NCBI GenBank assembly: GCA_902826095.1
Contig: CADEDN010000004.1
Coordinates: forward strand, 1-64,000
Length of the DNA: 64,000 nucleotides
Reading direction: 5' to 3'
Origin: an uncultured Alphaproteobacteria bacterium
Lineage (GTDB): Bacteria; Pseudomonadota; Alphaproteobacteria; Caulobacterales; Parvularculaceae
The stretch's first letter is position 1, and the number at the start of each line of letters is the position of its first letter. Under the pieces are notes generated by a model. It saw only the letters and a program-made list of their open reading frames with translations. It did no database searches and was not told the DNA's origin. Positions 3,173 through 59,517 of the stretch are shown one piece after another. The translations under genes were made by a program, and so were the position numbers.

Positions 3173-4645
3173 TTGCACGCCCTGACCTCCTATCTGTCGA
3201 CGCCCGGCCGCCGTTTCGCCGTCCTCGCCGCCGTATTGACGGCGCTGCGCATCCTGACGCTCATCGTCGGGCACCCGGATCTCGGGCCTGACGAGGGCCA
3301 ATACTGGTTCTGGAGCAAGACGCCCGATTTCGGCTATTTCTCCAAACCGCCGCTGATCGCCTGGTCGATCGCCGCGACGACGGCGCTGTTCGGCGACAGC
3401 GAGTGGGCGGTGCGGCTCAGCGCGCCGCTTTATCAGCTTGGCGCCGCCACTTTCATTTTTCTGCTGACCCGGCGTCTCGCCGGCGCGCGCGAAGCGTTCT
3501 GGGCCGGCGCGGCGTGGCTCACCTTGCCGGGCGTCTTTTTGTCGTCGGCGTTGATCACGACCGACGCGCCGCTGATTTTTTTCTGGTGCGCGGCGCTCTA
3601 TTTCTTCTTCGCGCTCACCGATGAAAGGGCCCCGGAAAATCGTCTTTATTGCGCAGCGGCGCTCGGGCTCGCCGTCGGGCTTGGCTTCCTCGCCAAATAC
3701 GCGATGACGTATTTCCTGCTTGGCGCCCTGCTCGCGCTCATCTTGTCGCCGGCAAGGCGCCGGCGGATGAAAGTCAGCGACGCGGCGCTCGCCCTCGCGA
3801 TCGCGCTCATCACGCTCTCGCCGAATATCTGGTGGAACGCGGCGCATGATTTCCAGACGATTTCGCACACGGCCGCCAACGCCGACTGGAACGGCGATTT
3901 CGGCCATCCGGACCGGCTTGCGAAATTTCTGCTCGACCAGTTCGGCGTCGCCGGCCCGATCGCGCTTGCGCTGGTCATCGCCGCCGCTCTCTTCGGTCGG
4001 CGCGGGCGCCCGTCCGACAGCGACGCCCTGCGGACGCTGCTCGCCTTCTCGATTCCAGTGATGACAATTGTCAGCGTTCAGGCCTTCCTGTCGCGCGCGC
4101 ATGGAAACTGGGCGGCGGTCGCTTATCCCTCGGCGATCATCATGGCGACGATCGTCGCCCTCCGCGACAAACGCATGATGGTCGCGGCGAAAGCGAGCGT
4201 CATCTTGCACATGCTCGTCGGGCTTGGATTTCTTGCAGCCTTCGCCAGCGCTTCTTTCGCGGACAGGATCGGCGCGGCGTCGGCCTTCAAGAAACTGCGC
4301 GGCTGGGAGGCGCAAGGCGCTGAAATCGCCAGGCTGAGCGAGGGCTATGACGCGATCATGACCGACGACCGGGAAATGACCGGCGAACTCGTCTATTACG
4401 CGCGCGGCGGACAACGGATCGTCGCGTGGAATTCAAACCGGTCGATCGACAGCCATTTCGAGGCGTTCCATGCGTATCAGCCCGAACGCGACAAGCGCGT
4501 TCTTTATGTCTCGACAAATGGCGACGCGCTCTATGTCCAGAATCGATTTGCGACAATCGAATTGCTTGGGAAGATCGACGCGGAAATCGGGCGCGGCCGA
4601 ACGCGCACGATCTATTATTACAACGTATCCGGCTTTCTTTGGTGA
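3173..4645 (+). CDS. second ArnT/GT39(83)-like glycosyltransferase (membrane)
   Basis: DEGQYWFWSKTPDFGYFSKPPLIAW motif and polytopic membrane body; paralog of previous gene. Confidence 0.7.
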   Translation: MHALTSYLSTPGRRFAVLAAVLTALRILTLIVGHPDLGPDEGQYWFWSKTPDFGYFSKPPLIAWSIAATTALFGDSEWAVRLSAPLYQLGAATFIFLLTRRLAGAREAFWAGAAWLTLPGVFLSSALITTDAPLIFFWCAALYFFFALTDERAPENRLYCAAALGLAVGLGFLAKYAMTYFLLGALLALILSPARRRRMKVSDAALALAIALITLSPNIWWNAAHDFQTISHTAANADWNGDFGHPDRLAKFLLDQFGVAGPIALALVIAAALFGRRGRPSDSDALRTLLAFSIPVMTIVSVQAFLSRAHGNWAAVAYPSAIIMATIVALRDKRMMVAAKASVILHMLVGLGFLAAFASASFADRIGAASAFKKLRGWEAQGAEIARLSEGYDAIMTDDREMTGELVYYARGGQRIVAWNSNRSIDSHFEAFHAYQPERDKRVLYVSTNGDALYVQNRFATIELLGKIDAEIGRGRTRTIYYYNVSGFLW

Positions 4646-4690
4646 AAGCGGCGGCCGGTTTCGCGGGCAAAGGCGCGCCAAACCAATGAT

Positions 4691-5665
4691 CTAACGGCGA
4701 TTGGCGGCGATCGCCGGCGACGCGGCCGTCGGCTGGAACGCGATCCGCCCGGGCGCGAAGACGCGCGACAACAGCGTCACCGCCGCCTTGACGCCGAACT
4801 GCGCCCAGAGCAGCGCGCCGACAAGCGACAGAAACGGCGCCGGGTAGGGATCGGAAAAATGCGCCTTGAAATAGCGCAGCATGCTGGAGGTCTTGCGCAT
4901 GTCGACGAAAATCGGATCGACCTCGCTCGAACTCTTGAAATGGAGCACCGAAACGGAAGGGTCGAAATAGACGGTTCCGCCGGCGTCCGCGAAACGCAGG
5001 CAGAAATCGACATCCTCGACATGGAGGAAATAACGCTCGTCCATGCCGCCGATCGACCAATAGTCCGTGCGCGGCGTCATGAAGCACGCGCCGGAAATGA
5101 CCGGCACGGGGATGACTTCTCCGGGGCAAGGGTCGCCGTGAAGGTTGAACCGCCGGAAATAGGGATGGCGCGGCGCAAGCCTATAAAGGCTCGTCGCTTC
5201 GACAAAGGCGCGCCATGGGGTCAAAGTCGCGCGCCGGCTGCCGCGCTGCTCGGCGCCATCGGGATCGATGATCTTTGCGCCCATGAGCCAGGGATGCGGG
5301 CGCATCGCGCCGTCGCGCGCCAGTTTCATCGCGCCGCCGGGCGGCAGGATGGCGTCCGGATTGACGAACAGAAGATGATCGCCGGTCGCCGTGCGGGCGC
5401 CGAGGTTGCAGGCGGCCGCAAATCCGACATTGCCGTGACCGCTGATCAGCCGGATCTTCGGGCCGTCGGTCTCGGGACCGATCGCGGCCTCGACCGCGCC
5501 CAGCGGGTTGCCGTTGTTGACAAGAATGATCTCGCGGACGCCTTCCTGCATGCGCAGCGCATCAAGACAGCGCGCCAGCACCGGACCCGTGTAGTAGGTT
5601 ACGACGATCGCCGAGACCACGACGCCTGATGTGTTGTTAGCCGGCAAAACTCGCCCCCGAACCAC
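4691..5665 (-). CDS. family 2 glycosyltransferase
   Basis: VVSAIVVTYYTGPVLARCLDALRMQEGVREIILVNNGNP N-terminal GT-A fold signature. Confidence 0.7.
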   Translation of the reverse strand: MVRGRVLPANNTSGVVVSAIVVTYYTGPVLARCLDALRMQEGVREIILVNNGNPLGAVEAAIGPETDGPKIRLISGHGNVGFAAACNLGARTATGDHLLFVNPDAILPPGGAMKLARDGAMRPHPWLMGAKIIDPDGAEQRGSRRATLTPWRAFVEATSLYRLAPRHPYFRRFNLHGDPCPGEVIPVPVISGACFMTPRTDYWSIGGMDERYFLHVEDVDFCLRFADAGGTVYFDPSVSVLHFKSSSEVDPIFVDMRKTSSMLRYFKAHFSDPYPAPFLSLVGALLWAQFGVKAAVTLLSRVFAPGRIAFQPTAASPAIAANRR

Positions 5666-5695
5666 TGTTTCGGCGCCTCTTAAAGCGGCGCTCTC

Positions 5696-6952
5696 TTATT
5701 GCTTCGATTTGTTTATGGAATATGACACCGCGCAGCCAAAAGCCGCAAGGGCAAAAACAGCAAGCCGCCAGACTTGCCACAGACTCGCTTCCAACATTAC
5801 GGAAATGAAAGATACGGATGCAGCCGCGATCATCGCGGCGAGCGATAAGCGGTCGATATTGCTGCGAAATATCGCGGCGGCGCCGGCTGTCAGCGCGACC
5901 GCGAAGAACATGACGCCGGGAAGGCCAAGCTCGAGCCAGATCTGGATGAAAACATTGTGAGGATGGATCGGGATCAGCGGCAGCGGCAGCGGAAAGCCGA
6001 CGACGTCGATCAGCCCGCCTTGCGCGTGCCAGGCCCGCGCGAAGTCCGCGCCGCACCCTCCCGGAAAACAATCGCCGAGCGCGCGCGCGGCCGCGACCTG
6101 CCAAAGGATGAGGCGCTGGCTCCACGACGCCGGCAAGTCGCCGTCAGACACCAGCGCGCTGATCGGCGCGGAGGCAGCGACGATTGGAGAGAGGAATAAC
6201 CCCGCGAGGAACGCAGCCGTGAGGAGGATCGCGGACAATCGGGGACGGGCGAGGGCGAGGGCGAAACCGCCGGCGCCGACGGCCAGCGCGATGACATTGG
6301 CAAAGACCGAGAACTGCGCCGCCGCGACCAGCAGCGCGCCGAGCGGCGTCAGCGCGACGACCCAGGATCCCGTCAGCCTGAACAAAAGCACGGCGGCCGG
6401 AAAGACAAGCGGCGCGATCGCGGTGACGCCGCGCGCCAGCGCGGTCATATCCTTCCACCGCAAGGGCGAGGCGTCTTCCGGCGGCAGGACGCTGCGGAGA
6501 TAGCCGCCGGACAAGCCCTCAAACAGCAACAGCGCGGCGGCGGCGCTGACCGATATTGCGAAGATTTGCGCGAACCGCCGCGCGCGCCGTTGCGTCGCCC
6601 GCAAGGCCTCGAAAACCAGCGCGCCGCCGGCAAGGGTCGCGGCGAACGCCGTCAGCCCGAGCCATTCGGCGCCGGGCGTCGGCGACCAGAAGGCGGTCGC
6701 GGCGATCCAGACGGCAAAGCCGCCCATCGACAAGGCGGCGACCGACAATGGGGTTGAGAAAATTCTTGCTGGCGCGAAAAGGGCAAAGCCCGAACGCCAG
6801 ATTTGAGGCCGCAAACCGATCGTCAGCGCGATGAAGCCCGCCGCCGGCGCAAGGCCGCGATGGCCGAAAACGGCAAGCCAGGCGACGCCCGCAAAGGCGA
6901 TCAGGACCATCGCATCGATCGCGCGGTCGAGCGTCGAGGGTTTTCCCGCCAA
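5696..6952 (-). CDS. O-antigen ligase/polymerase-like polytopic membrane protein
   Basis: 418 aa, ~10 TM helices with large loop, embedded in glycosyltransferase cluster. Confidence 0.5.
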   Translation of the reverse strand: MAGKPSTLDRAIDAMVLIAFAGVAWLAVFGHRGLAPAAGFIALTIGLRPQIWRSGFALFAPARIFSTPLSVAALSMGGFAVWIAATAFWSPTPGAEWLGLTAFAATLAGGALVFEALRATQRRARRFAQIFAISVSAAAALLLFEGLSGGYLRSVLPPEDASPLRWKDMTALARGVTAIAPLVFPAAVLLFRLTGSWVVALTPLGALLVAAAQFSVFANVIALAVGAGGFALALARPRLSAILLTAAFLAGLFLSPIVAASAPISALVSDGDLPASWSQRLILWQVAAARALGDCFPGGCGADFARAWHAQGGLIDVVGFPLPLPLIPIHPHNVFIQIWLELGLPGVMFFAVALTAGAAAIFRSNIDRLSLAAMIAAASVSFISVMLEASLWQVWRLAVFALAAFGCAVSYSINKSKQ

Positions 6953-6954
6953 TG

Positions 6955-8892
6955 TCAGCGACCGCGCAGATCAGGCGGCGTCGCCTCGTCGCCAAGACGC
7001 GCCAGCGCCTCGTCGAGCGCGGCGACGTCCTGACGCTCCGATCCAAGGCGGCGAAGCGACACCTTGCGCTCTTCCGCCTCGCGCGCGCCGACGACGGCGA
7101 TCACGGGAACCTTGGCGAGCGAATGTTCGCGCACCTTGTAATTGATCTTCTCGTTGCGAAGATCGGTCACGACGCGAAGGCCCGCCGCGCGCATCTCCGC
7201 GGCGACTTTCAGCGCGTAATCGTCGGCGTCGGAGACGATGGTCGCGACGACGATTTGCACTGGCGCGAGCCACAGCGGAAACTTGCCGGCGTAATGCTCG
7301 ATCAGAACGCCGGTGAAACGCTCCAGCGAGCCGAGGATCGCGCGATGCAGCATGACGGGCGTGTGGCGCGCGCCGTCCTCGCCGACATATTCGGCGCCAA
7401 GGCGCCGCGGCAGATTGAAATCGCACTGAAATGTGCCGGTCTGCCATTCTCGGCCGATCGCGTCGCGAACGACGAAGTCGAGTTTTGGGCCGTAAAACGC
7501 GCCGTCGCCGGGGTTCAGTTCCGGCTCGATGCCAAGTCGCTTGCAGGCGCCTTCGAGCGCGGCCTCCGCCTTGTCCCAGATTTCATCGGCGCCGATGCGC
7601 TTTTCCGGGCGCGTCGAGAATTTGACGAGCGGCTCCTCAAAGCCGAGTTCGGCGTACATTTCGAACAGCAGGCGGACGAAAGCGATCGCTTCATCCTCGA
7701 TCTGGCTTTCCATCAGGAAAATGTGGCCGTCGTCCTGAACAAACCCCCTGACGCGCATGAGGCCGTGCAGCGCGCCCGACGGCTCATAGCGATGGCAGCA
7801 GCCGAATTCGGCAAGGCGCAGCGGCAGCTCGCGGTAAGACCGAAGCCCTTGCCGGAAGATCTGCACATGCGCCGGGCAGTTCATCGGCTTTAGGGACATC
7901 ACGCGTTTTTCTTCGCCGCCCTCATCGACTTCGGCGATGAACATGTTCTCGCGGTAATTCTCCCAGTGCCCGGACGCCTCCCAGAATTTGCGGTCCATCA
8001 GCTGCGGGGTCTTCACCTCGACATAGTCCTTCGCCGCGATCTTGCGGCGGACGTAGTTTTCGAGCGTCCGGTAAAGCGTCCAGCCATGCGGGTGCCAGAA
8101 CGCCTGGCCAGCCGCCTCTTCCTGGAAATGAAAAAGATCCATCTCCCTGCCGAGGCGGCGATGGTCGCGCTTTTCCGCCTCCTCAAGGCGCGTCAGATAG
8201 GCCTTTAGATCTTTCTCGTCCTTCCACGCCGTCCCGTAAATTCGCTGCAGGACGGCGTTTCGATGATCGCCGCGCCAATAGGCGCCCGCGACCTTCATCA
8301 GCTTGAAGGCCTTGCCGATATGTCTTGTCGACGGCAGATGCGGGCCGCGACAGAGGTCATGCCAGTCGCCGTGCCAGTAGACCTTGATGTCCTCGCCGGC
8401 GGGCAGATCGGAAATGATCTCCGCCTTGTAGGTCTCGCCGATCGACTTGAAATGGGCGATCGCCTTTTCGCGCGCCCAGATCTCCTTGCGGGTCGGACGA
8501 TCCTCGTCGACGATCTCCGCCATCCTTCTTTCGATGCGGGCGAGATCGTCGGTCGAAAACGGTTCGGGCCTCGCGAAGTCGTAGAAGAACCCGTCCTCGA
8601 CATTCGGGCCGATCGTCACCTGCGTTCCCGGGAACAGCTCCTGCACCGCCTGCGCGAGGAGGTGCGCCGTATCGTGACGGATAAGGTCGAGCGCGTCCGC
8701 ATCCTTGCGCGTGACGATTTCAATCCTTGCGTCGCGCGCGACCGGCTGGAAGAGATCGGAAAGGACGCCGTCGACCCGCATCGCGACCGCCTTTTTGGCG
8801 AGCGATTTTGAAATCGATTCCGCGACGTCGGTTCCTGTGACCGCGCGGTCGTAATGTCGAACCGAGCCGTCGGGGAGTGTGATCGCGACCAT
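6955..8892 (-). CDS. thrS: threonine--tRNA ligase
   Basis: [15 protein letters not shown]... TGS domain, class II aaRS motifs; true start at ATG 8892 (ORF-track extension to 9150 is antisense of tRNA genes). Confidence 0.9.
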
Positions 8893-9074: not shown

Positions 9075-9149
9075 GCCTCAGTAGCTCAGCGGTAGAGCAG
9101 CCGGCGTAAAGCCGGCAGGCGGTCGGTTCGACTCCGATCTGGGACACCA
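9075..9149 (+). tRNA. atypical tRNA-like gene (class I cloverleaf, anticodon loop CGUAAAG: anticodon UAA but G33; C2:A71 mismatch; encoded CCA) - possible pseudo-tRNA
   Basis: GCCUCAG/UA/GCUC-AGCGGUA-GAGC/A/GCCGG-CGUAAAG-CCGGC/AGGCG/GUCGG-UUCGACU-CCGAU/CUGGGAC/A/CCA hand-folded. Confidence 0.45.
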
Positions 9150-9221
9150 CTGGATAGCTCAGTAGGGTAGAGCAGGAGACTGTTAATCTCTCGGTCGGGG
9201 GTTCGACTCCCCCTCCAAATT
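9148..9221 (+). tRNA. tRNA-Asn(GUU) with defective acceptor 5' strand (overlaps CCA of upstream tRNA-like gene)
   Basis: canonical D arm UAGCUCAGUAGGGUAGAGC, anticodon loop CUGUUAA, T arm GGGGG-UUCGACU-CCCCC; but 5' strand CACUGGA pairs only 4/7 with 3' strand UCCAAAU. Confidence 0.5.
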
Positions 9222-51610: not shown

Positions 51611-53794
51611 CTATTCTTCGGCAAGCTGCACTCGATCAAACTCAGCGACCCTGACTATGTCCTGAAGTTTCCGTTTCATTTCGTCCGTCAATAGGCGGGC
51701 AGCACCACAAGAGTTCTCACCCAGCATCCTGCGTGCAAATTCTTCGCGTGCGATAAATGGCGATGGCTGATCTGGATGACCTTCATCATCCATCATCGGC
51801 GTAAGCGCCTCTAATAAGATCTTCTCAACGATATCGGAATCGGACTCCATGCAGGCAGAGCGCGCGACGACCGTCAATCGCTGAGGCAGGATGCCGCCCG
51901 CAACATCCTCAAATTCAATTGCAGGAGACCACTCTGCCGTGTATCCCAAGTCAAAATCTTCATTACTCAGGCAACCTTCGAGCGATTTTGGATCGGTCGC
52001 GGCTCTTAACCGAGCGCCCCGCTCAGTTGAGATGAAACCATCTTTGACTACTTGTGCGAATTTGCCCAATGTGTTTTCGATTTCCGACACTTCGAGTGGT
52101 GCGCAGCCGAATTTTGCGCGGAAAAGCATTGCGGAATCTGTGGTCTTTGGGTGTCCCTCTGCCCGTCGAAGATCCACTCCATTGAGATCCGCCGCGGCCA
52201 GATCAGCATCCAATAGACTGACTCCGATTAGACTTGCATTGGCCAACTTTGTTCCTTGGAGAATGGCGTCCTTTAGATCGGCGCCAACCAACACAGTGTT
52301 GGTGAGCGACGCCCAGCTCAGGTCTGTGCCGTGAAGATTTGCCCCCAGCATGCTCGCGCCGTCCAACAAGGCGTGCTTCAACTTTGCGCGGGTCAGTTCT
52401 GCGCCCGACAAATCGGCACGACTGAGGATGCTCATTTGCACCTCGGCATCCATCAAGCTCGCTGACCTCAATTCGGCATCTACGAGAATTGCGCCATGGA
52501 GGTCTGCCCGATCGAGTATGGCTTTATTCAATATTGCGCCTTTCATGTCAGCTTGTTGAAGTCTTGCCGATGTCAAGTTGGCAGCGCTGAGAGATACGCT
52601 CTCCATTAATGCACCCTCCAAATCAGCACCAATCAAGTCTGCTCCTTGAAGAAATGCGCCGGTCAAGTCAATTCCACGAAGAGATGCGTTCCGAAGAAAC
52701 GCACCTTCCAGGCGGCGCTTGCGCAACGATAATCTTGATAGTTTCGGAGCACCATCGCCCTGCGCCGCATGCTCGGCAAAATCATAATAGGGCAACATTA
52801 TTGAGTCACTGAACGGGCTTGCAGGCCGCCGCGAGATGTCATCGAAAGATTGATCGAATAATTTCTCTCGCACTCGAGCAACAAATGGCAGTTCGCGAAC
52901 GCGCGCAAAAATAGTTTCCTCGTCAAAGGCGACCAAGATCCATGACGTTGCGAGCAGGAGCGCGCTAAGCAACGCAATCAAGATGTACTTTGTGATAGAT
53001 TTCAGTGTACGTCGGGCGGGAGCCATAATTGAGCGGCGCTCCGGTCTTACCCAAATTATAGAGAGAAGAAGCACGTCGAATGCGATGAGGGCGCGAATCC
53101 ACCAGAGAGTTGCCTCCCCGTGATAAGGAAGGAATTGCACTTGCGTCAGCAGCAATCCGAACATGGGTAAGATCGCCAATGTCACGAATCCTATCAGTCG
53201 GAGCACGTAGGCGAAAAACCCCGTCCGATTCCAAGTCGGTCCTGCGAGCATTTGCGCAAATACAAAGTTTGAAATTTGGAGACGCGTCTCGTTTTGACGA
53301 TCAACCGAAATCTCGTGATCCGCCAAGAAGCGATTCAGCTGGGCCGCATTGTCAGCCAGCAACCAGATGTGCAGCAGGGAGTAGCTATGCAGCAAAAACA
53401 GGAGCAGTGGCGCAACCCAGAAATAGGGCACCAGCGGCAATTCGGCGTCAATAATCGGCAATCTGAATGGTGTTTCGAGTAGCAGTTGTGTGTGCGTCAC
53501 TGTCCCCATTGAGATTAGATAGTAAGTCGCAAATGAAATGAACGACAACCAAATGCCCTGTGTCTTTGCTGCCGCATCATTCAGTGCTGCCATTGCGTCT
53601 TGCAGGCGCCTAGTTTGCGTCCCAGTTAGATTGGGACCAAACACTAAACTGGCTGCGGTGCCTCCAGAGTCAGCGCCACCATGATTTTGCTCTACAGAGG
53701 GAGCCGTGACGCTCGGCCCGCCAGAGGCGCTTTTTGCCGCGCATTGAAGCGCATTTCGTCGAAGCGCCATTGCGATATCGAACTGAGTGACCAC
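51611..53794 (-). CDS. membrane-anchored pentapeptide-repeat protein (N-terminal ~300-aa polytopic domain, ~230-aa pentapeptide-repeat solenoid, ~180-aa C-terminal domain)
   Basis: tandem A(D/N)LxxAxL pentapeptides (LRGIDLTGAFLQGADLIGADLEGALMESVSLSAANLTSARLQQADMKGAIL...); ~50% GC versus ~67% flanks. Confidence 0.75.
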   Translation of the reverse strand: MVTQFDIAMALRRNALQCAAKSASGGPSVTAPSVEQNHGGADSGGTAASLVFGPNLTGTQTRRLQDAMAALNDAAAKTQGIWLSFISFATYYLISMGTVTHTQLLLETPFRLPIIDAELPLVPYFWVAPLLLFLLHSYSLLHIWLLADNAAQLNRFLADHEISVDRQNETRLQISNFVFAQMLAGPTWNRTGFFAYVLRLIGFVTLAILPMFGLLLTQVQFLPYHGEATLWWIRALIAFDVLLLSIIWVRPERRSIMAPARRTLKSITKYILIALLSALLLATSWILVAFDEETIFARVRELPFVARVREKLFDQSFDDISRRPASPFSDSIMLPYYDFAEHAAQGDGAPKLSRLSLRKRRLEGAFLRNASLRGIDLTGAFLQGADLIGADLEGALMESVSLSAANLTSARLQQADMKGAILNKAILDRADLHGAILVDAELRSASLMDAEVQMSILSRADLSGAELTRAKLKHALLDGASMLGANLHGTDLSWASLTNTVLVGADLKDAILQGTKLANASLIGVSLLDADLAAADLNGVDLRRAEGHPKTTDSAMLFRAKFGCAPLEVSEIENTLGKFAQVVKDGFISTERGARLRAATDPKSLEGCLSNEDFDLGYTAEWSPAIEFEDVAGGILPQRLTVVARSACMESDSDIVEKILLEALTPMMDDEGHPDQPSPFIAREEFARRMLGENSCGAARLLTDEMKRKLQDIVRVAEFDRVQLAEE

Positions 53795-53963: not shown

Positions 53964-54215
53964 GAAAACTACGCCTCGCCCGGCTTTTTCGTCGCGGCGG
54001 CGAGGCAGGAGCAGCCGCCGAGGGAGAGGACGCCTCTTGCGTCGAGATATTCCTCGATCGCTTCGGCGATGAGATCGTCGGCGCTCATGTCGGCTTCGGC
54101 GGCGCCGAGCGCGAGGCGCATGAATTCGCGCGCCGACAAATGCACGGTGACGCCGGCCTTGACCTCTTTTGTCTGCGGCGCCGGCGCGGGCGCGGCCGCC
54201 GGCGGCGCCGGCGCG
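53964..54215. repeat. ~250-bp direct repeat (copy R), within 3' end of intact RHH/ParG-like gene
   Basis: matches 51106-51357. Confidence 0.85.
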
Positions 54216-54883
54216 TCGTCATCAAGCGCGTCCGGCGGATCGTCATCATCCTCTAAACTGTCGAGAACGTCGTCCTCTTCCCGCCGGTCGCCGTAGAAGG
54301 CGCTTTTTTCCTGCGCGATCGTCTCGGTGTCGCCGAATTTCTCGAAATAGGAGAGAACTTCGTCGGCTTCGGCTTCGAGCGCGGCGATTTCCTCCGGCGA
54401 CGGATTATCGGGATAGCCGGCGTCGAGGCTGCGCTCGTTGATGACGGTCATCGGCCGCGGCGGCGCCGTAGCGGCGGCGGGGGCGGCTTTCGCCGCGGGC
54501 GCGGGCGCGGCTTTGGCCGCCGGCTGCGCCTTGACGTCGGGAACGCTCGGCGATTTCGAGGCGGCGGGCGCGCTGGCGGGCGGAACAGCAGGCGCCGGCG
54601 CCTTCGCTTTTGGATCGCGCGCCGGCTCTTTCGCGGACTCTTTCGCCGGCTCCTTCGCCGGGGGCCTCGCCGCGGTTTTCAGATCGAGCGGCGGCGCTTT
54701 TGATTTGGGCTTGCCTTTGGGCTCAAGATTGAAGGCGTCGGTCTCTTCGGCCGGATCGACGATCGGCGCGTTCGACGGCGCGGCCTGTCCCTTGCGGGCG
54801 AGCAGGCCCGATGTCAGGGCGGCGAAGCGGGCTTCAAGCTTCCCCTCGCCTTCGCGCGCGCCGTTCTTTTTCATGCCGAGCAT
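53969..54883 (-). CDS. ribbon-helix-helix (ParG/CopG-like) DNA-binding protein with long Pro/Ala/Lys-rich N-terminal region; partner of ParA-like ATPase
   Basis: C-terminal VTVHLSAREFMRLALGAAEADMSADDLIAEAIEEYL RHH motif; immediately downstream of parA-like gene. Confidence 0.55.
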   Translation of the reverse strand: MLGMKKNGAREGEGKLEARFAALTSGLLARKGQAAPSNAPIVDPAEETDAFNLEPKGKPKSKAPPLDLKTAARPPAKEPAKESAKEPARDPKAKAPAPAVPPASAPAASKSPSVPDVKAQPAAKAAPAPAAKAAPAAATAPPRPMTVINERSLDAGYPDNPSPEEIAALEAEADEVLSYFEKFGDTETIAQEKSAFYGDRREEDDVLDSLEDDDDPPDALDDDAPAPPAAAPAPAPQTKEVKAGVTVHLSAREFMRLALGAAEADMSADDLIAEAIEEYLDARGVLSLGGCSCLAAATKKPGEA

Positions 54884-54916
54884 CCCGCGTTCGGGACTTT
54901 CCCTGTTCGCCCGCCG

Positions 54917-55636
54917 CTATTGGGCGGCTCTGCGGCCGAAAACGCGGTTTTGCGCCGCGACCGCGGCGGCCGCCTGCTCTTCGGGCGACCTTATGCCGCC
55001 CTCCGCGCGTTTGAGGCGCCGGTCGAGATATTGCCAGAGCTCGGAAATTTCCTGCGCGGATTTGCAATAGGGATCGATCTCCATCACCGTCCGTCCGTCA
55101 ATCATCGAGGCGGCGTAGTCGACGCGGTGATGGATGACGGTCGGCGAGACGGTCCCGTGCTGGGAGAGCGCGATCGCCGCTTCCGAGGTGATGCGCGCCT
55201 TGGGCGTCGCGCCGTTGACGACAAAGACGAGCTGTTTGCCGCGCGCCTGCGCGATGTCGACGGTCGGTCCGACGGCGCGAAGATCATGCGGCGAGGGCCG
55301 CGTCGGCGCGACCACGAGATCGGCGAAATTGACGACCTCCGAGATCGCCCGCGTCACCGCCGGCGGCGTGTCGATGACGACCAGGCGAAAGCCTTCGTCG
55401 CGCGCGCGATCAAGGTCCTGAAAGAGATTTGAAAACACCGACTGGATGAAGGCGGGGTTTGGATCCTCGCGGACGTTCCACCATTTCGCCAGCGATCCTT
55501 GCGGATCGGTGTCTATGAGCGCGACGGGGCCCGCCCCGGCTCGCCCTGCTTCGACGGCAATGTGGCCCGAGAGCGTTGTTTTGCCCGAGCCCCCCTTTTG
55601 CGACGCGAAGACTATTACGCGCATCGACGCCAGCAT
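54917..55636 (-). CDS. ParA/MinD-family P-loop ATPase
   Basis: deviant Walker A VFASQKGGSGKTT; start likely at MLASMRVIVF (ORF opens at 55693). Confidence 0.85.
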   Translation of the reverse strand: MLASMRVIVFASQKGGSGKTTLSGHIAVEAGRAGAGPVALIDTDPQGSLAKWWNVREDPNPAFIQSVFSNLFQDLDRARDEGFRLVVIDTPPAVTRAISEVVNFADLVVAPTRPSPHDLRAVGPTVDIAQARGKQLVFVVNGATPKARITSEAAIALSQHGTVSPTVIHHRVDYAASMIDGRTVMEIDPYCKSAQEISELWQYLDRRLKRAEGGIRSPEEQAAAAVAAQNRVFGRRAAQ

Positions 55637-56253
55637 GCGTCCTCCCGGAATCTTTTCCCTGGGCGTGTCGCCCCGGCCGCCATCTTCGCGCATGAGGCGT
55701 TAAAGCCGCGCGCAGAACGCGCTTCGAATTGTCTGAAAACCTTAACCATAAAGTGAGGGTTGGCGGACGGCGCGAAGACCGCGCGAAAAAAAAGAGCGCC
55801 GGAAGCAGCCTAGATACGCAAGGCCGCGACCGACGCGACGCGAGCTATGACAGAGATGTTTTAAATCGCGCTTAATTGCAGGCGCGTCATCAAGCGCCGC
55901 GCGCGGGCGGATGGATGTGACGGCGAATGCGGATTTTGCGGCCGGCCGCAGGGACGGCGATGTCTCATTTTGAATGGACGCGATCCGCCGATTGGTCGCG
56001 GCCCTGAAGGGCCGCTCGGGGGCGACGCTGACGATCGTTGTCGAAGAGTAGACGGGTTGGGATTTGGCCCGAAGCCGACGCAGACGACGCGCGCGGCGAA
56101 CGGCTGGTTGATCCGCAAGGCGGACTCTTACGCACACGATCGCGCGACTTAGCAGACATCAGATAAGGAGGCGCCGGGAGAAGAATCCCGCGTCACGATC
56201 CCGCCGGCCCACTCCGGTTAGGACGAAAAAGAAATTCGTACAGCAATCGCACC

Positions 56254-56898
56254 CTATGCGGCGTACTGCTTTTGGTAGACCTTATTCTCGAGCAGCGATC
56301 GAAAGTGCTGCATCAGCCCAAGGATTTCGGCGATTAAATCGTCTACGCCCGTTTCTTGGATGAATTCGTTCTGGCCGTGCGCAATGGCATTCCTACGCTT
56401 AAGAATGAATTGGTCGAGGAACACGCGCTTGGTTTCAAAATGCAAAGAATCGACTGAGCAGATAAGGCAGATTTCCCTGATGATGTCCGTATTGAGGTTA
56501 GACTTTGTGTCGATCAGTGATGGGTTTACGTATTTGAACGTGCCGGTCATTCCATCGAGAATGTCGTTGACTAGTTTGCATCGCGCTTCCAGGTTCGCAC
56601 GACTCTGATGTAGCGCATCGATCCTGGCGAGGAACGTGTTCACGTAAATTTGCCGCTCAAGGTTCGCGTAGGTTCGGCGCCGGATTGTGAGGTATTCGAA
56701 ATATCGGTTCGCGCAGTTGCGAACATAGCCCTCCCAATGCGCATAGCTCATCGTCACTATGGCGCGGAGCAAAACAGGCTTCGCAGCGGCGTCTGCCGCC
56801 TTCACCGCGGCCTTCAAATCGGAAAGCTCTTTGCGGCGCCAGATAAGGTCCTGGTCAAAAAGGTCCGAGAGGTCTTGGTCTGTATAGGGTTTGCTCAC
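56254..56898 (-). CDS. HEPN-like predicted nuclease (MAE_28990/MAE_18760-type), downstream partner of DUF262 gene
   Basis: all-helical 214-aa protein with C-terminal RRNAIAHG (Rx4H HEPN motif); 4-bp overlap with upstream gene; low-GC islet. Confidence 0.65.
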   Translation of the reverse strand: MSKPYTDQDLSDLFDQDLIWRRKELSDLKAAVKAADAAAKPVLLRAIVTMSYAHWEGYVRNCANRYFEYLTIRRRTYANLERQIYVNTFLARIDALHQSRANLEARCKLVNDILDGMTGTFKYVNPSLIDTKSNLNTDIIREICLICSVDSLHFETKRVFLDQFILKRRNAIAHGQNEFIQETGVDDLIAEILGLMQHFRSLLENKVYQKQYAA

Positions 56899-58007
56899 TG
56901 CGCGAACCAGTTAGTGCCGAACGGAATCGTCCGTTGGATGCGGACGGTCCCACGAAGACCGGCTACAAAGAAGGTATCGATATCGGGCGACTGCCAGAAC
57001 TGGGCGATGCGGTGTTGGACGTATTGCGTCGGATCGGGCTTGGCCTGGATGGCAGGAAGATTCCGCGCGATGCCGATCGCGATGCATTCATAGGCCGCGA
57101 GGAGCACACGTCCAGTTGGCTGCCCATTGTTGAAGCGACGAAGCGCGTTTTCGCCGTACGCCGCGTGGAGGAGGTCAAAAGTGCCGTTAAAAGTCTCGGC
57201 GACCTGCTGAGTCACACCAGCCGATGCTAGCTCGACGATACTCTTGTCGATGAACTCCTCTACGTCCAGCTTGTTGTCGTAATCTATGTATTTGTGGACG
57301 AGGTAACGCGACACGTATTCCATGTCGCGCTGCTTTTCGAGCTGGTCCTCGCTCGCCGAAAGAACGAAACGGTAGGATTGCCTCTGCGAGAGCACGCGCA
57401 TCATCTGGTGGTACGCGGGGTTCACCATGATAACGATGACATTTCGAAGCTCTTGTGCGTTGGCCAAAGTACCGCCTGCATTTAGGCGCTGGAACAAGTC
57501 GTACTTGGTTTCATTTGAACTTGGCCGCTTCAGAATTTCGACGCTTATCCTGCTCCGCCGGATGGCGAGCTGAAATGGTCCTGTGAACGGCTGTTGTTCA
57601 TCCAATGGGACACCCGGAATATCGTTCGATGCCTCCCATACCGCCTTGTCTAGTGACGGCAGATACTTAGTGGCAACGAGCGCGGTCGGCGGCTCGAGCT
57701 GGTTGGATTCCGAATTACGCAAGACACCAACGAATTCGAGGAGAGTTGAGACACGCTGAAGCCCGTCTATGAGCTCCCATCTCGAGTTCTCCTTCTCGAA
57801 AACGAAGATGGGCGGAACCGGAATACCCAGAAGGATGGATTCAATGAGCTTCGACTTCTGCCCAATCTCCCAGCGGAAGAGCCGCTGGAAATCAGGATTG
57901 ATGATGAGTTCGTTATCCTTGTACATGTTGATCAGCTCACCGACGGACATCTGATATGCGTCGGTCTTCACAAGCCGCGTGGCGATCTCAATCTCATTCT
58001 CCAGCAT
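56895..58007 (-). CDS. DUF262 domain protein (ParB/sulfiredoxin-fold, GmrS-like N-terminal NTPase/nuclease domain)
   Basis: INPDFQRLFRWE and ELIDGLQRVSTL (DGQQR-type) signature motifs; 370 aa; ~50% GC. Confidence 0.8.
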   Translation of the reverse strand: MLENEIEIATRLVKTDAYQMSVGELINMYKDNELIINPDFQRLFRWEIGQKSKLIESILLGIPVPPIFVFEKENSRWELIDGLQRVSTLLEFVGVLRNSESNQLEPPTALVATKYLPSLDKAVWEASNDIPGVPLDEQQPFTGPFQLAIRRSRISVEILKRPSSNETKYDLFQRLNAGGTLANAQELRNVIVIMVNPAYHQMMRVLSQRQSYRFVLSASEDQLEKQRDMEYVSRYLVHKYIDYDNKLDVEEFIDKSIVELASAGVTQQVAETFNGTFDLLHAAYGENALRRFNNGQPTGRVLLAAYECIAIGIARNLPAIQAKPDPTQYVQHRIAQFWQSPDIDTFFVAGLRGTVRIQRTIPFGTNWFAQ

Positions 58008-58335
58008 GTGAGAGCTCCGAATTTGCAGGGGCAGATTAGCCGGGTGCAGCGGATAGCGCGACCGCGAAAGTAACGTGTCAAATCTGTATTAGGTCGTGCC
58101 CTCGCTGGATCCGTCCAAACTTATTCCGTCTTGCTTCCGATCACACGAGGGTAGCATAGTCCGCTTCTGCCCCCAATCCGGTCATTCCCGCGATCAGGTT
58201 CGCGCGTCCGCGCTCGGCGATTTGCAGCAAGGGCGTCGCCGCATGGCGCGCGGCAGGAGGTTCCGGATAATCGCTTTCGGCGATTTCCGGGATGACAGGT
58301 GATGAGCCTTCATCAGCGCAAATCGGGACGAGCCC

Positions 58336-59517
58336 TTACGCGACGTCGTCCTCGTCGAATCCTAGGAGGCGGGTGATGCGCGCTATTCGCGGATTGCCGT
58401 CCCAGTCCCAATAGCGAAGGACGGCTCTCGCGTAATCGCGCGCCATTGAATCGAAGACGCCGAGGATTTTCTCCGCGCGTTCCGGCGAGAGCGGATTTTC
58501 CGCGTCCTTGCGCGAGACGATCTGGAAGAATTCGGCGCGCGGCAGGCCGAGGCTCTTGGCCATAACGGCGAAGGGCTCGACGCCCGGATCGCGCAGGATG
58601 CGCGCGACAAGTTCGCGGCTGACGCCGGCGATCATGGCGCAGGCGTGGATGATCTCTTGCGCCGGATATTTGCGCGCCGCGGCCAGCGTCTTGATGACGA
58701 CGTCCATCGTGACCGGCTCGCCGTTGACGCCGCGCGGGCGGTGGCGGCGGTCGAGCATGATGAGGATTTCCTTGACGAGCGGATCGGCGCCCTCGCCGCG
58801 GAAGACGCGCGCGTAAAGCTCCTGCACGCTGTCTTGCACGATCGTGCGGTCGAGCGCGAAGCGCGCGAGGATGCGCTTGCGGCTTTCAACGTCGACCCAC
58901 CAGAACATCATGAAGCCATGCGCGGGCTCAAGCTCGCGCCGGCGCAGCAACAGCGCCTGCGTCTCCGTATCGGCGGTCGAACGGCTGACGAGCAGATCGA
59001 TGGCGGACGGCGAGAACTGGAACTCCTCGCGGCGGAGCAGCAGCTTCGTCACTTCCGGTTCGTTGAATTCAAGAACGACGTCGGCGAGCGAGGCCGTGAG
59101 GTCGAGGCGGCGGGCGATCATCTCGCGATGCGCGGTCGTGCCGGTGCGCGCGCACTCGATCAGCAGCGCTTCGGGGAGCGGCTCGACGCGGCGGATCACC
59201 GGCTCGGCGACGCGCGGCTCGTCAAGCAGCAGCATGCGCAGCAGCGAGTTCGGGGCCTCGGCGACGCGCGCGATGCGGCGCGACACCTCAAGGCGAAGGT
59301 CTTCCTCGACCTTGTCGAGCGCCTGCAGCATGATGTCGGCGACCAGCGAGCGCTGGTTGGCGGTGAGACGCGCCGGCGGCAGGACGACGATGTCGGAGAG
59401 TTTCCGGACCAGCACCTCGCGCGGGGTGTGGCCGCGCGTCGAGGGCGGCGTCAGGCCGACATCGCTTTGCGGCGCGACATCCTCTTCTTCCATTGCCGGA
59501 TCTTGCGTCGACATCAA
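58336..59517 (-). CDS. DUF2336-like hypothetical protein
   Basis: 393 aa helical repeat protein common in alphaproteobacteria. Confidence 0.5.
   Translation of the reverse strand: MMSTQDPAMEEEDVAPQSDVGLTPPSTRGHTPREVLVRKLSDIVVLPPARLTANQRSLVADIMLQALDKVEEDLRLEVSRRIARVAEAPNSLLRMLLLDEPRVAEPVIRRVEPLPEALLIECARTGTTAHREMIARRLDLTASLADVVLEFNEPEVTKLLLRREEFQFSPSAIDLLVSRSTADTETQALLLRRRELEPAHGFMMFWWVDVESRKRILARFALDRTIVQDSVQELYARVFRGEGADPLVKEILIMLDRRHRPRGVNGEPVTMDVVIKTLAAARKYPAQEIIHACAMIAGVSRELVARILRDPGVEPFAVMAKSLGLPRAEFFQIVSRKDAENPLSPERAEKILGVFDSMARDYARAVLRYWDWDGNPRIARITRLLGFDEDDVA

Follow-up and report, generated by a model that had tools for sequence, protein, structure and literature searches.

A DUF262-HEPN gene pair on a short insertion in a Parvularculaceae-type alphaproteobacterium: a probable divergent relative of the anti-phage system PD-T4-2

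A selection against phage T4 yielded PD-T4-2, a system of Escherichia coli ECOR65 (Vassallo et al. 2022, PMC9519451); the same paper describes it as 'DUF262, HEPN', with HHpred assigning PF03235 to its first protein and PF18735, followed by PF18737, to its second. The cloned system acts against T4, and its deletion in native ECOR65 greatly raised T4 plaquing (PMC9519451); the ECOR65 protein is RCO39066.1, with an unannotated partner encoded just downstream of it (in QOYX01000002:338334-339873). Here we analyse a pair of genes with the same domain content, hereafter A and B, in a 64,000-nt stretch of contig CADEDN010000004.1 from an uncultured alphaproteobacterium (the window; all gene coordinates are window positions). 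We consider it probable that the pair, acquired horizontally, works on its own as a two-gene module of the PD-T4-2 type against phages, in which A would be the sensor or switch that activates the HEPN RNase B.

Reviews place PD-T4-2 with Menshen and Dazbog among the DUF262 systems that lack a DUF1524 domain (PMC10952713, PMC12065111). In GmrSD, BrxU and SspE, DUF262 is a nucleoside triphosphatase (NTPase) that senses modified DNA and switches on an attached nuclease, while the helical domain that follows it binds DNA; the DGxQR or DGQQR motif is described in the literature as the nucleotide-phosphate-binding motif of DUF262. HEPN domains, for their part, are predominantly RNases acting as dimers. 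The combination of the two was listed as early as Table 1 of Anantharaman et al. 2013 ('Ribo L-PSP-HEPN ... operon with ParB', and likewise for the MAE_28990 HEPN family), a purely computational study that defined no two-gene system and tested no function. B is a full-length member of the Pfam models built from those families; the HEPN genes of that study were linked to restriction-modification, whereas no methylase lies beside the window pair. An initial reading of the window (the original prediction) had held that such a combination had not been experimentally characterised, which is wrong as regards function, given PD-T4-2 in 2022 and the operon described in 2013, and still true as regards mechanism.

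The locus consists of two co-directional open reading frames (ORFs) on the minus strand, A then B, as seen in the ORF list and by translation. Gene A (56895..58007) starts with ATG and encodes 370 amino acids (aa), comprising a ParB-like DUF262 (GmrSD_N) domain and a helical C-terminal domain; gene B (56254..56898) starts with GTG and encodes 214 aa, a standalone HEPN protein of the RiboL-PSP / MAE_28990 family and a predicted RNase effector. A and B share four nucleotides, GTGA on the coding strand (56895..56898, minus strand), in which the A stop codon and the B start codon overlap; we read this as translational coupling, as had been predicted. A Shine-Dalgarno element, GGAG (58015..58018, minus strand), precedes the ATG of A by 7 nt, and a GGAG/GGGG-like element occupies the same place in relatives. 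The sizes, orientation and 4-bp overlap of the two genes were exactly as originally predicted, and the motifs named at that time (NPDFQR..RW and ELIDGLQR in A, RRNAIAHG in B) are all present on translation.

Searched against Pfam, A matched PF03235 (GmrSD_N/DUF262) at E = 6.5e-24 over residues 23–190 and no other Pfam domain; the absence of a DUF1524/HNH partner domain, which had been predicted, was borne out by this search. The DUF262 domain spans about residues 20–190; the C-terminal domain beyond it is helical and shows homology to the 'ParBDB' region of the Menshen protein NsnA. Among PADLOC models, NsnA matched at 1.7e-51 over residues 11–305 and PD-T4-2_A (PDLC04027) at E = 8.2e-28 (95.5 bits, in two stretches), while SspE, HEC-05 and HEC-06 gave only weak N-terminal matches. 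Three motifs, all on the minus strand, mark the protein: NPDFQRLFRW (57870..57899, residues 37–46), ELIDGLQR (57753..57776, residues 78–85) and KYDLFQRLNAGG (57471..57506, residues 168–179). As a separate observation, more than 500 enterobacterial plasmids (from E. coli, Klebsiella and Salmonella, and mostly conjugative) share one near-identical DUF262 gene, the product of which is 28% identical to A over residues 24–207.

The HEPN nature of B is equally clear. Its best Pfam family was PF18735 (HEPN_RiboL-PSP), at E = 5.6e-34 over residues 17–205 and profile positions 2–191 of 191, a full-length match that clears the gathering threshold (118.1 bits, cut-off 28.4), and PF18737 (HEPN_MAE_28990) came second (E = 4.6e-24, 86.2 bits against a cut-off of 26.8). 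B had been correctly recognised as a HEPN protein, its better family being RiboL-PSP and not the MAE_28990 type named at that time; TIGR04255, put forward as the accession of this HEPN family, could not be confirmed, an NCBIfam search having returned no relevant match. The catalytic motif RRNAIAHG lies at 56374..56397 on the minus strand (residues 168–175, R169-N-x3-H174-G), and a second conserved patch, YAHWEG (56728..56745, minus strand, residues 52–57), is possibly part of the active site or of the dimer interface. At 50% identity the family of B falls into 1,585 clusters, which are nearly all standalone proteins of about 215 aa.

Conservation of these motifs was assessed in 47 A and 42 B sequences, reaching down to ~18–30% identity. 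The patterns PxxQR..RW, DGxQR and FxRLN..G in A and R-N-x3-H-G in B are at least 95% conserved. At residue level this holds for P38, Q41, R42, R45 and W46 of the first motif of A, for D81, G82, Q84 and R85 of the second and for F172, R174, L175, N176 and G179 of the third, as well as for R169, N170, H174 and G175 in the catalytic motif of B, for Y52, H54, E56 and G57 of the YAHWEG patch across the divergent family, and for W20, R21 and E24. With the motif residues conserved to this degree, both A and B appear to be active enzymes. Of the two, B is the faster-diverging protein (in one example, A is 39% and B 27% identical).

The two genes travel together. Homologue searches returned 6,137 scored matches for A and 1,198 for B; the best 120 of each are at least 67% identical, mostly 370 and 214 aa long, and often on common contigs. 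A scan of species-representative genomes for A identified ten taxa (Methylovirgula, Balneolaceae, Desulfobulbaceae, Shewanella, Edaphobacter, Bryobacteraceae, Xanthobacteraceae, Mesorhizobium, an unclassified Proteobacteria bin and Terriglobia), and tblastn located a B homologue directly 3' of A in 9/9 of the representative loci with readable downstream DNA, the tenth (L009) ending just past A and therefore being left out of the count. Two contigs identical to the window also carry A followed by B, bringing the total to 11/11, and at the same position in all 11 loci the genes overlap by ATGA or GTGA; four further long metagenome contigs show the same order (4/4). In IMG/VR, a scan with the A alignment gave 37 loci at 29–58% identity, 34 of them with room downstream, and in 33 of these 34 the next ORF matched a profile built from B. 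The linkage therefore persists down to ~30% identity, and it is found in the plasmid examples as well. The pair is accordingly conserved as a unit, one of the points on which the original prediction had asked for a check; no B homologue was present in the cultured-phage collection.

By the flanking DUF2336 protein, the host is a Parvularculaceae-type alphaproteobacterium, and three relatives (L020, L021 and L022) with DUF2336 orthologues 81–84% identical provide the empty site. In all three, a ParA-like gene directly follows DUF2336, with 147–288 bp between them, and the pair is missing. Between the window and these empty sites, blastn homology breaks off at the stop codon of DUF2336 (58336–58349) and resumes at 55838–55875. 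We therefore place the pair on an inserted segment of ~2.46 kb (55876..58335) containing only A, B and non-conserved spacers, and assign ParA to the host backbone. The size originally predicted, ~2.6 kb, corresponds to the gap between the parA-like and DUF2336 genes (2,642 bp), of which the inserted DNA is only a part. From these comparisons of sequence, the horizontal acquisition that had been proposed for the pair holds.

Base composition points the same way. The dip in GC content is real, its size having been overstated at ~50% against ~67%, where ~53% against ~65% was measured: A has a GC content of 0.546, B of 0.516 and the two together of 0.535, with a window mean of 0.648 and flanking genes at 0.655–0.685. 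Only 1.6% of 1754-bp segments are as GC-poor as the pair, and all the others fall on a gene at 51.6–53.8 kb. In every high-GC host the pair lies below its flanks (0.46 vs 0.61 and 0.48 vs 0.60, for example). Border signals around the pair, namely direct or inverted repeats, tRNA anchors, promoters, terminators and non-coding RNAs, did not exceed chance, and no integrase was found with the window pair. Alignment of the non-coding flanks of the 11 loci revealed no conserved ends or att-like sites, conservation ending at the ORF borders.

Set beside PD-T4-2, the window pair has the same build: two co-directional genes, the first encoding DUF262 without DUF1524 and the second a small HEPN protein, with B and the PD-T4-2 HEPN protein sharing the same Pfam ranking (PF18735, then PF18737). 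PD-T4-2 is the smaller of the two, at 1,540 bp vs 1,754 bp, with a HEPN protein of ~165 aa vs 214 aa in B. The PD-T4-2_B model of PADLOC does not recognise B; neither did any of 16 other HEPN partners match it at E <= 0.01 (0/16, the one from an E. coli plasmid included), and the model therefore appears narrow. Three relatives (L007, L018 and L030) match PD-T4-2_A over nearly the full length of the profile. Judged by architecture, domains and profiles, the window pair can be classified as a divergent member of a PD-T4-2-like DUF262-HEPN class. That the pair would match no named defence system, as first supposed, largely fails: A matches both NsnA and PD-T4-2_A, and B none.

Other described systems share one half of the pair. 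By profile homology, the ParB-DUF262 plus ParBDB-type architecture of A is common to NsnA of Menshen; that system, however, needs the ABC ATPase NsnB as transducer and a polymorphic effector, NsnC, whereas A in the window is coupled directly to a HEPN protein. GmrSD, BrxU and SspE resemble A in their N-terminal DUF262 NTPase domain with a DGxQR-type motif, but carry their DNase, a DUF1524 HNH domain, at the C-terminus of the same polypeptide, whereas the effector in the window is a separate HEPN protein. B, in turn, resembles the HEPN toxins of HEPN-MNT, AbiD/AbiF, DARNA and ApeA, small HEPN effectors with an Rx4–6H motif that are expected to cleave RNA and halt growth; their regulators are an MNT nucleotidyltransferase, an RNA antitoxin or a fused sensor, and none is a ParB-like NTPase. 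Four assignments were considered and rejected: an incomplete Menshen system (NsnABC), as the NsnB ABC ATPase and NsnC are absent near the pair and in all relatives; membership of the GmrSD / BrxU / SspE group, as the HNH domain is missing from A; a HEPN-MNT toxin-antitoxin, as the partner is DUF262 and a Pfam search found no nucleotidyltransferase domain; and Dazbog, as no Dazbog (Dzb) model was among the PADLOC matches of A or B at E <= 1.

The mechanism that we infer for the pair in its host is as follows. A would be the sensor or switch, its DUF262 NTPase and its helical DNA-binding-type domain, the latter like that of NsnA, recognising invading DNA that is possibly hypermodified. A cycle of NTP binding and hydrolysis dependent on DGxQR would then change the conformation of A, such that B is released or activated. 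B would act as a HEPN RNase with an R-N-x3-H active site, probably as a dimer, and its ratio to A may be fixed by translational coupling. Once active, B would cleave RNA (tRNA, rRNA or mRNA), translation would stop, and the infection would be aborted or blocked. The defence logic of a sensor combined with a HEPN effector, as put forward in the original prediction, is in our opinion reasonable.

Several observations weigh against this interpretation. Only for the E. coli system has phage defence been demonstrated, while the clade of the window is known from sequence. A matches PD-T4-2_A, but NsnA scores higher; B gave zero matches at E <= 1 in PADLOC, PD-T4-2_B included, and the homology of B to PD-T4-2_B consists in the Pfam families that they share. 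Identity of at least 67% among the best 120 matches and fixed lengths are unusually conserved for a defence system. Chromosomal copies mostly lie alone amid housekeeping genes (groEL, a ribosomal protein cluster, bipA, a glmU-like gene), and the enrichment in defence islands, another of the points to be checked, was not evident in about ten chromosomal loci, where the neighbours are housekeeping genes. No mechanistic study of PD-T4-2 was found in the literature searched. Further to that, the structural models of A and B are too poor for judging the A-B interface or the HEPN fold. The AlphaFold2 inputs were alignments of close homologues only (67–87% identical) and too shallow; the predicted local distance difference test (pLDDT) score was 62 for A, with the C-terminal half helical and confident and the N-terminal half poor, and 48 for B, an unusable model. 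Foldseek of the A model against the PDB returned nothing significant, the weak best matches being ParB-N, Noc and DndI, and sequence and profile searches of the PDB with A and B gave zero relatives; from these PDB searches, no solved structure appears to exist for either family.

Hosts of the pair include Alpha- and Gammaproteobacteria, Desulfobacterota, Balneolaceae, Acidobacteriota, Planctomycetes and Actinomycetota, and small toxin-antitoxin (TA) genes are sometimes found near the chromosomal copies. One IMG/VR locus (L030, IMGVR_UViG_3300024582_000091, 3796–7562) carries relatives of A and B, 39% and 31% identical, between a P4-type integrase and psu, an interval known as a defence hotspot of P4-like satellites (Rousset et al. 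2022); a megablast search with this pair against all complete E. coli genomes found no near-identical DNA. On a Corynebacterium plasmid, another relative adjoins an SNF2 gene and a PaeR7I restriction-modification system. On a 5.7-kb mobilizable Col-type plasmid of Enterobacter cloacae (L017, CP056768.1), the pair lies across the record origin, at 4674–5660 and 46–717, and the gene table of the plasmid holds only the HEPN gene, as a 'hypothetical protein'. An E. coli IncF plasmid (L018, CP057984.1, 2923–4518) encodes a 350-aa DUF262 protein and a 180-aa PF18735 HEPN protein beside the ccdAB and pemIK TA modules; its HEPN gene is annotated merely as hypothetical and is not recognised by PADLOC. 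Relative to the window pair, the identity of its A (30%) is confined to the ParB domain and the alignment of its B to the Rx4H motif, and by these alignments it is a different variant. In Mesorhizobium kowhaii (L008, NZ_JBHUGR010000001.1, 6912–8533), a ~1.6-kb insertion sequence (IS) element with a 465-aa DDE-transposase-like ORF splits A, leaving a 304-aa fragment, while B is full length with its RRNAIAHGQ motif intact. This locus is a natural 'A-knockout'.

Such contexts bring to mind an addiction module of the TA type, in which B would be a constitutively toxic HEPN RNase and A its protein antitoxin, with loss of the cassette killing the cell and defence being secondary. Many type II TA operons share the 4-nt overlap of an upstream gene with a toxin-like one that is seen here, TA systems frequently employ HEPN toxins, and the cassette is found by itself between housekeeping genes and on small plasmids, in many cases close to other TA genes. 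We nevertheless find this explanation unlikely. With 370 aa and NTPase motifs that are invariant in the family, A is unlike a simple antitoxin, and the combination of a split A with an intact B in M. kowhaii suggests that B is tolerated without intact A, if weakly, since B could have been silenced by the IS or could still be neutralised by the 304-aa remnant of A. TA behaviour and abortive infection are, moreover, not mutually exclusive. We are similarly doubtful about direct DNA immunity resembling type IV restriction, in place of abortive infection, where A would sense modified phage DNA and the DNase would be either A itself, as a ParB-fold nuclease, or B in place of the DUF1524 HNH domain. 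Modified DNA is what DUF262 targets in GmrSD, BrxU and SspE, PD-T4-2 was selected with T4, the DNA of which is glucosyl-hydroxymethylated, and 'ParB nuclease' is the name given to the partner by Anantharaman et al., who also tie HEPN genes to restriction-modification systems. Characterised HEPN domains, on the other hand, are nearly all RNases, A has no recognisable DNase domain beyond the ParB fold, and inspection of 15 loci showed no methylase in linkage with the pair, bar an unrelated neighbouring restriction-modification system on one plasmid.

It is very improbable that the two genes do not form a two-gene system at all, with A being an orphan or degenerate NsnA of Menshen, or the pair working together with the neighbouring ParA ATPase. 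NsnA is indeed the best PADLOC match of A, the same strand carries a ParA-like gene 560 bp further downstream, and the MAE_18760 HEPN family has been reported in operons with ParA/Soj (Anantharaman et al. 2013). The pair has, however, neither an NsnB ABC ATPase nor NsnC nearby, ParA and DUF2336 form a conserved backbone in the three relatives that lack the pair, and ParA is not beside it at any other locus inspected. A role of ParA as a part of the system is refuted in practice by the empty-site comparison.

We tentatively raise the possibility, which on present evidence is less than even, that the 370-aa/214-aa clade is a functionally distinct defence subtype, where a ParB-like NTPase gates a HEPN RNase directly, without the ABC-ATPase transducer of Menshen. 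Across several phyla its members are at least 67% identical (best 120 matches), and they are usually inserted alone amid housekeeping genes, with no mobility gene or conserved ends. If so, the trigger or the spread of the cassette might differ from those of E. coli PD-T4-2. PADLOC models would not call the clade, because B is without a match.

The genes around the insertion deserve a brief description. On the minus strand at 53969–55693 the window encodes a ParA-like ATPase (CbiA/MipZ/VirC1-type) and then a 304-aa acidic protein rich in Ala, Pro and Lys. Both are conserved beside DUF2336 in the Parvularculaceae relatives; they are a chromosomal ParA-like pair and not a plasmid partition module. 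A second patch of low GC content (0.526) at 51611–53794, also on the minus strand, codes for a protein of 727 aa, which is hydrophobic in its N-terminal half, carries pentapeptide repeats (PF00805, 2e-41) in its C-terminal part and has no match in PADLOC. In the syntenic relatives L021 and L022, the 727-aa gene is absent after the pair formed by ParA and a 291-aa gene, and its presence in the window, at a distance of two genes from the DUF262-HEPN islet, appears to reflect a separate insertion. Elsewhere, at 9075–9217 on the plus strand, two tRNA-like sequences abut. The first is called by ARAGORN as tRNA-Leu(UAA), at only 75 nt and with G rather than U before the anticodon; the second (9151–9217), with a GUU/Asn-like anticodon loop, is above the Rfam threshold, lacks the first three bases of the acceptor stem and is not called by ARAGORN.

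The gene combination, its defence role and the logic of its domains are already in the literature, and the locus is a divergent example that introduces no new principle. DUF262-HEPN pairs are widespread, the family of B alone comprising ~1,600 clusters at 50% identity, and the failure of the PADLOC B model to detect this clade exposes a gap in annotation. A conserved and compact clade with clear catalytic motifs, together with a natural variant whose A is interrupted by an IS element, could help to show how a ParB-like NTPase controls a HEPN nuclease.

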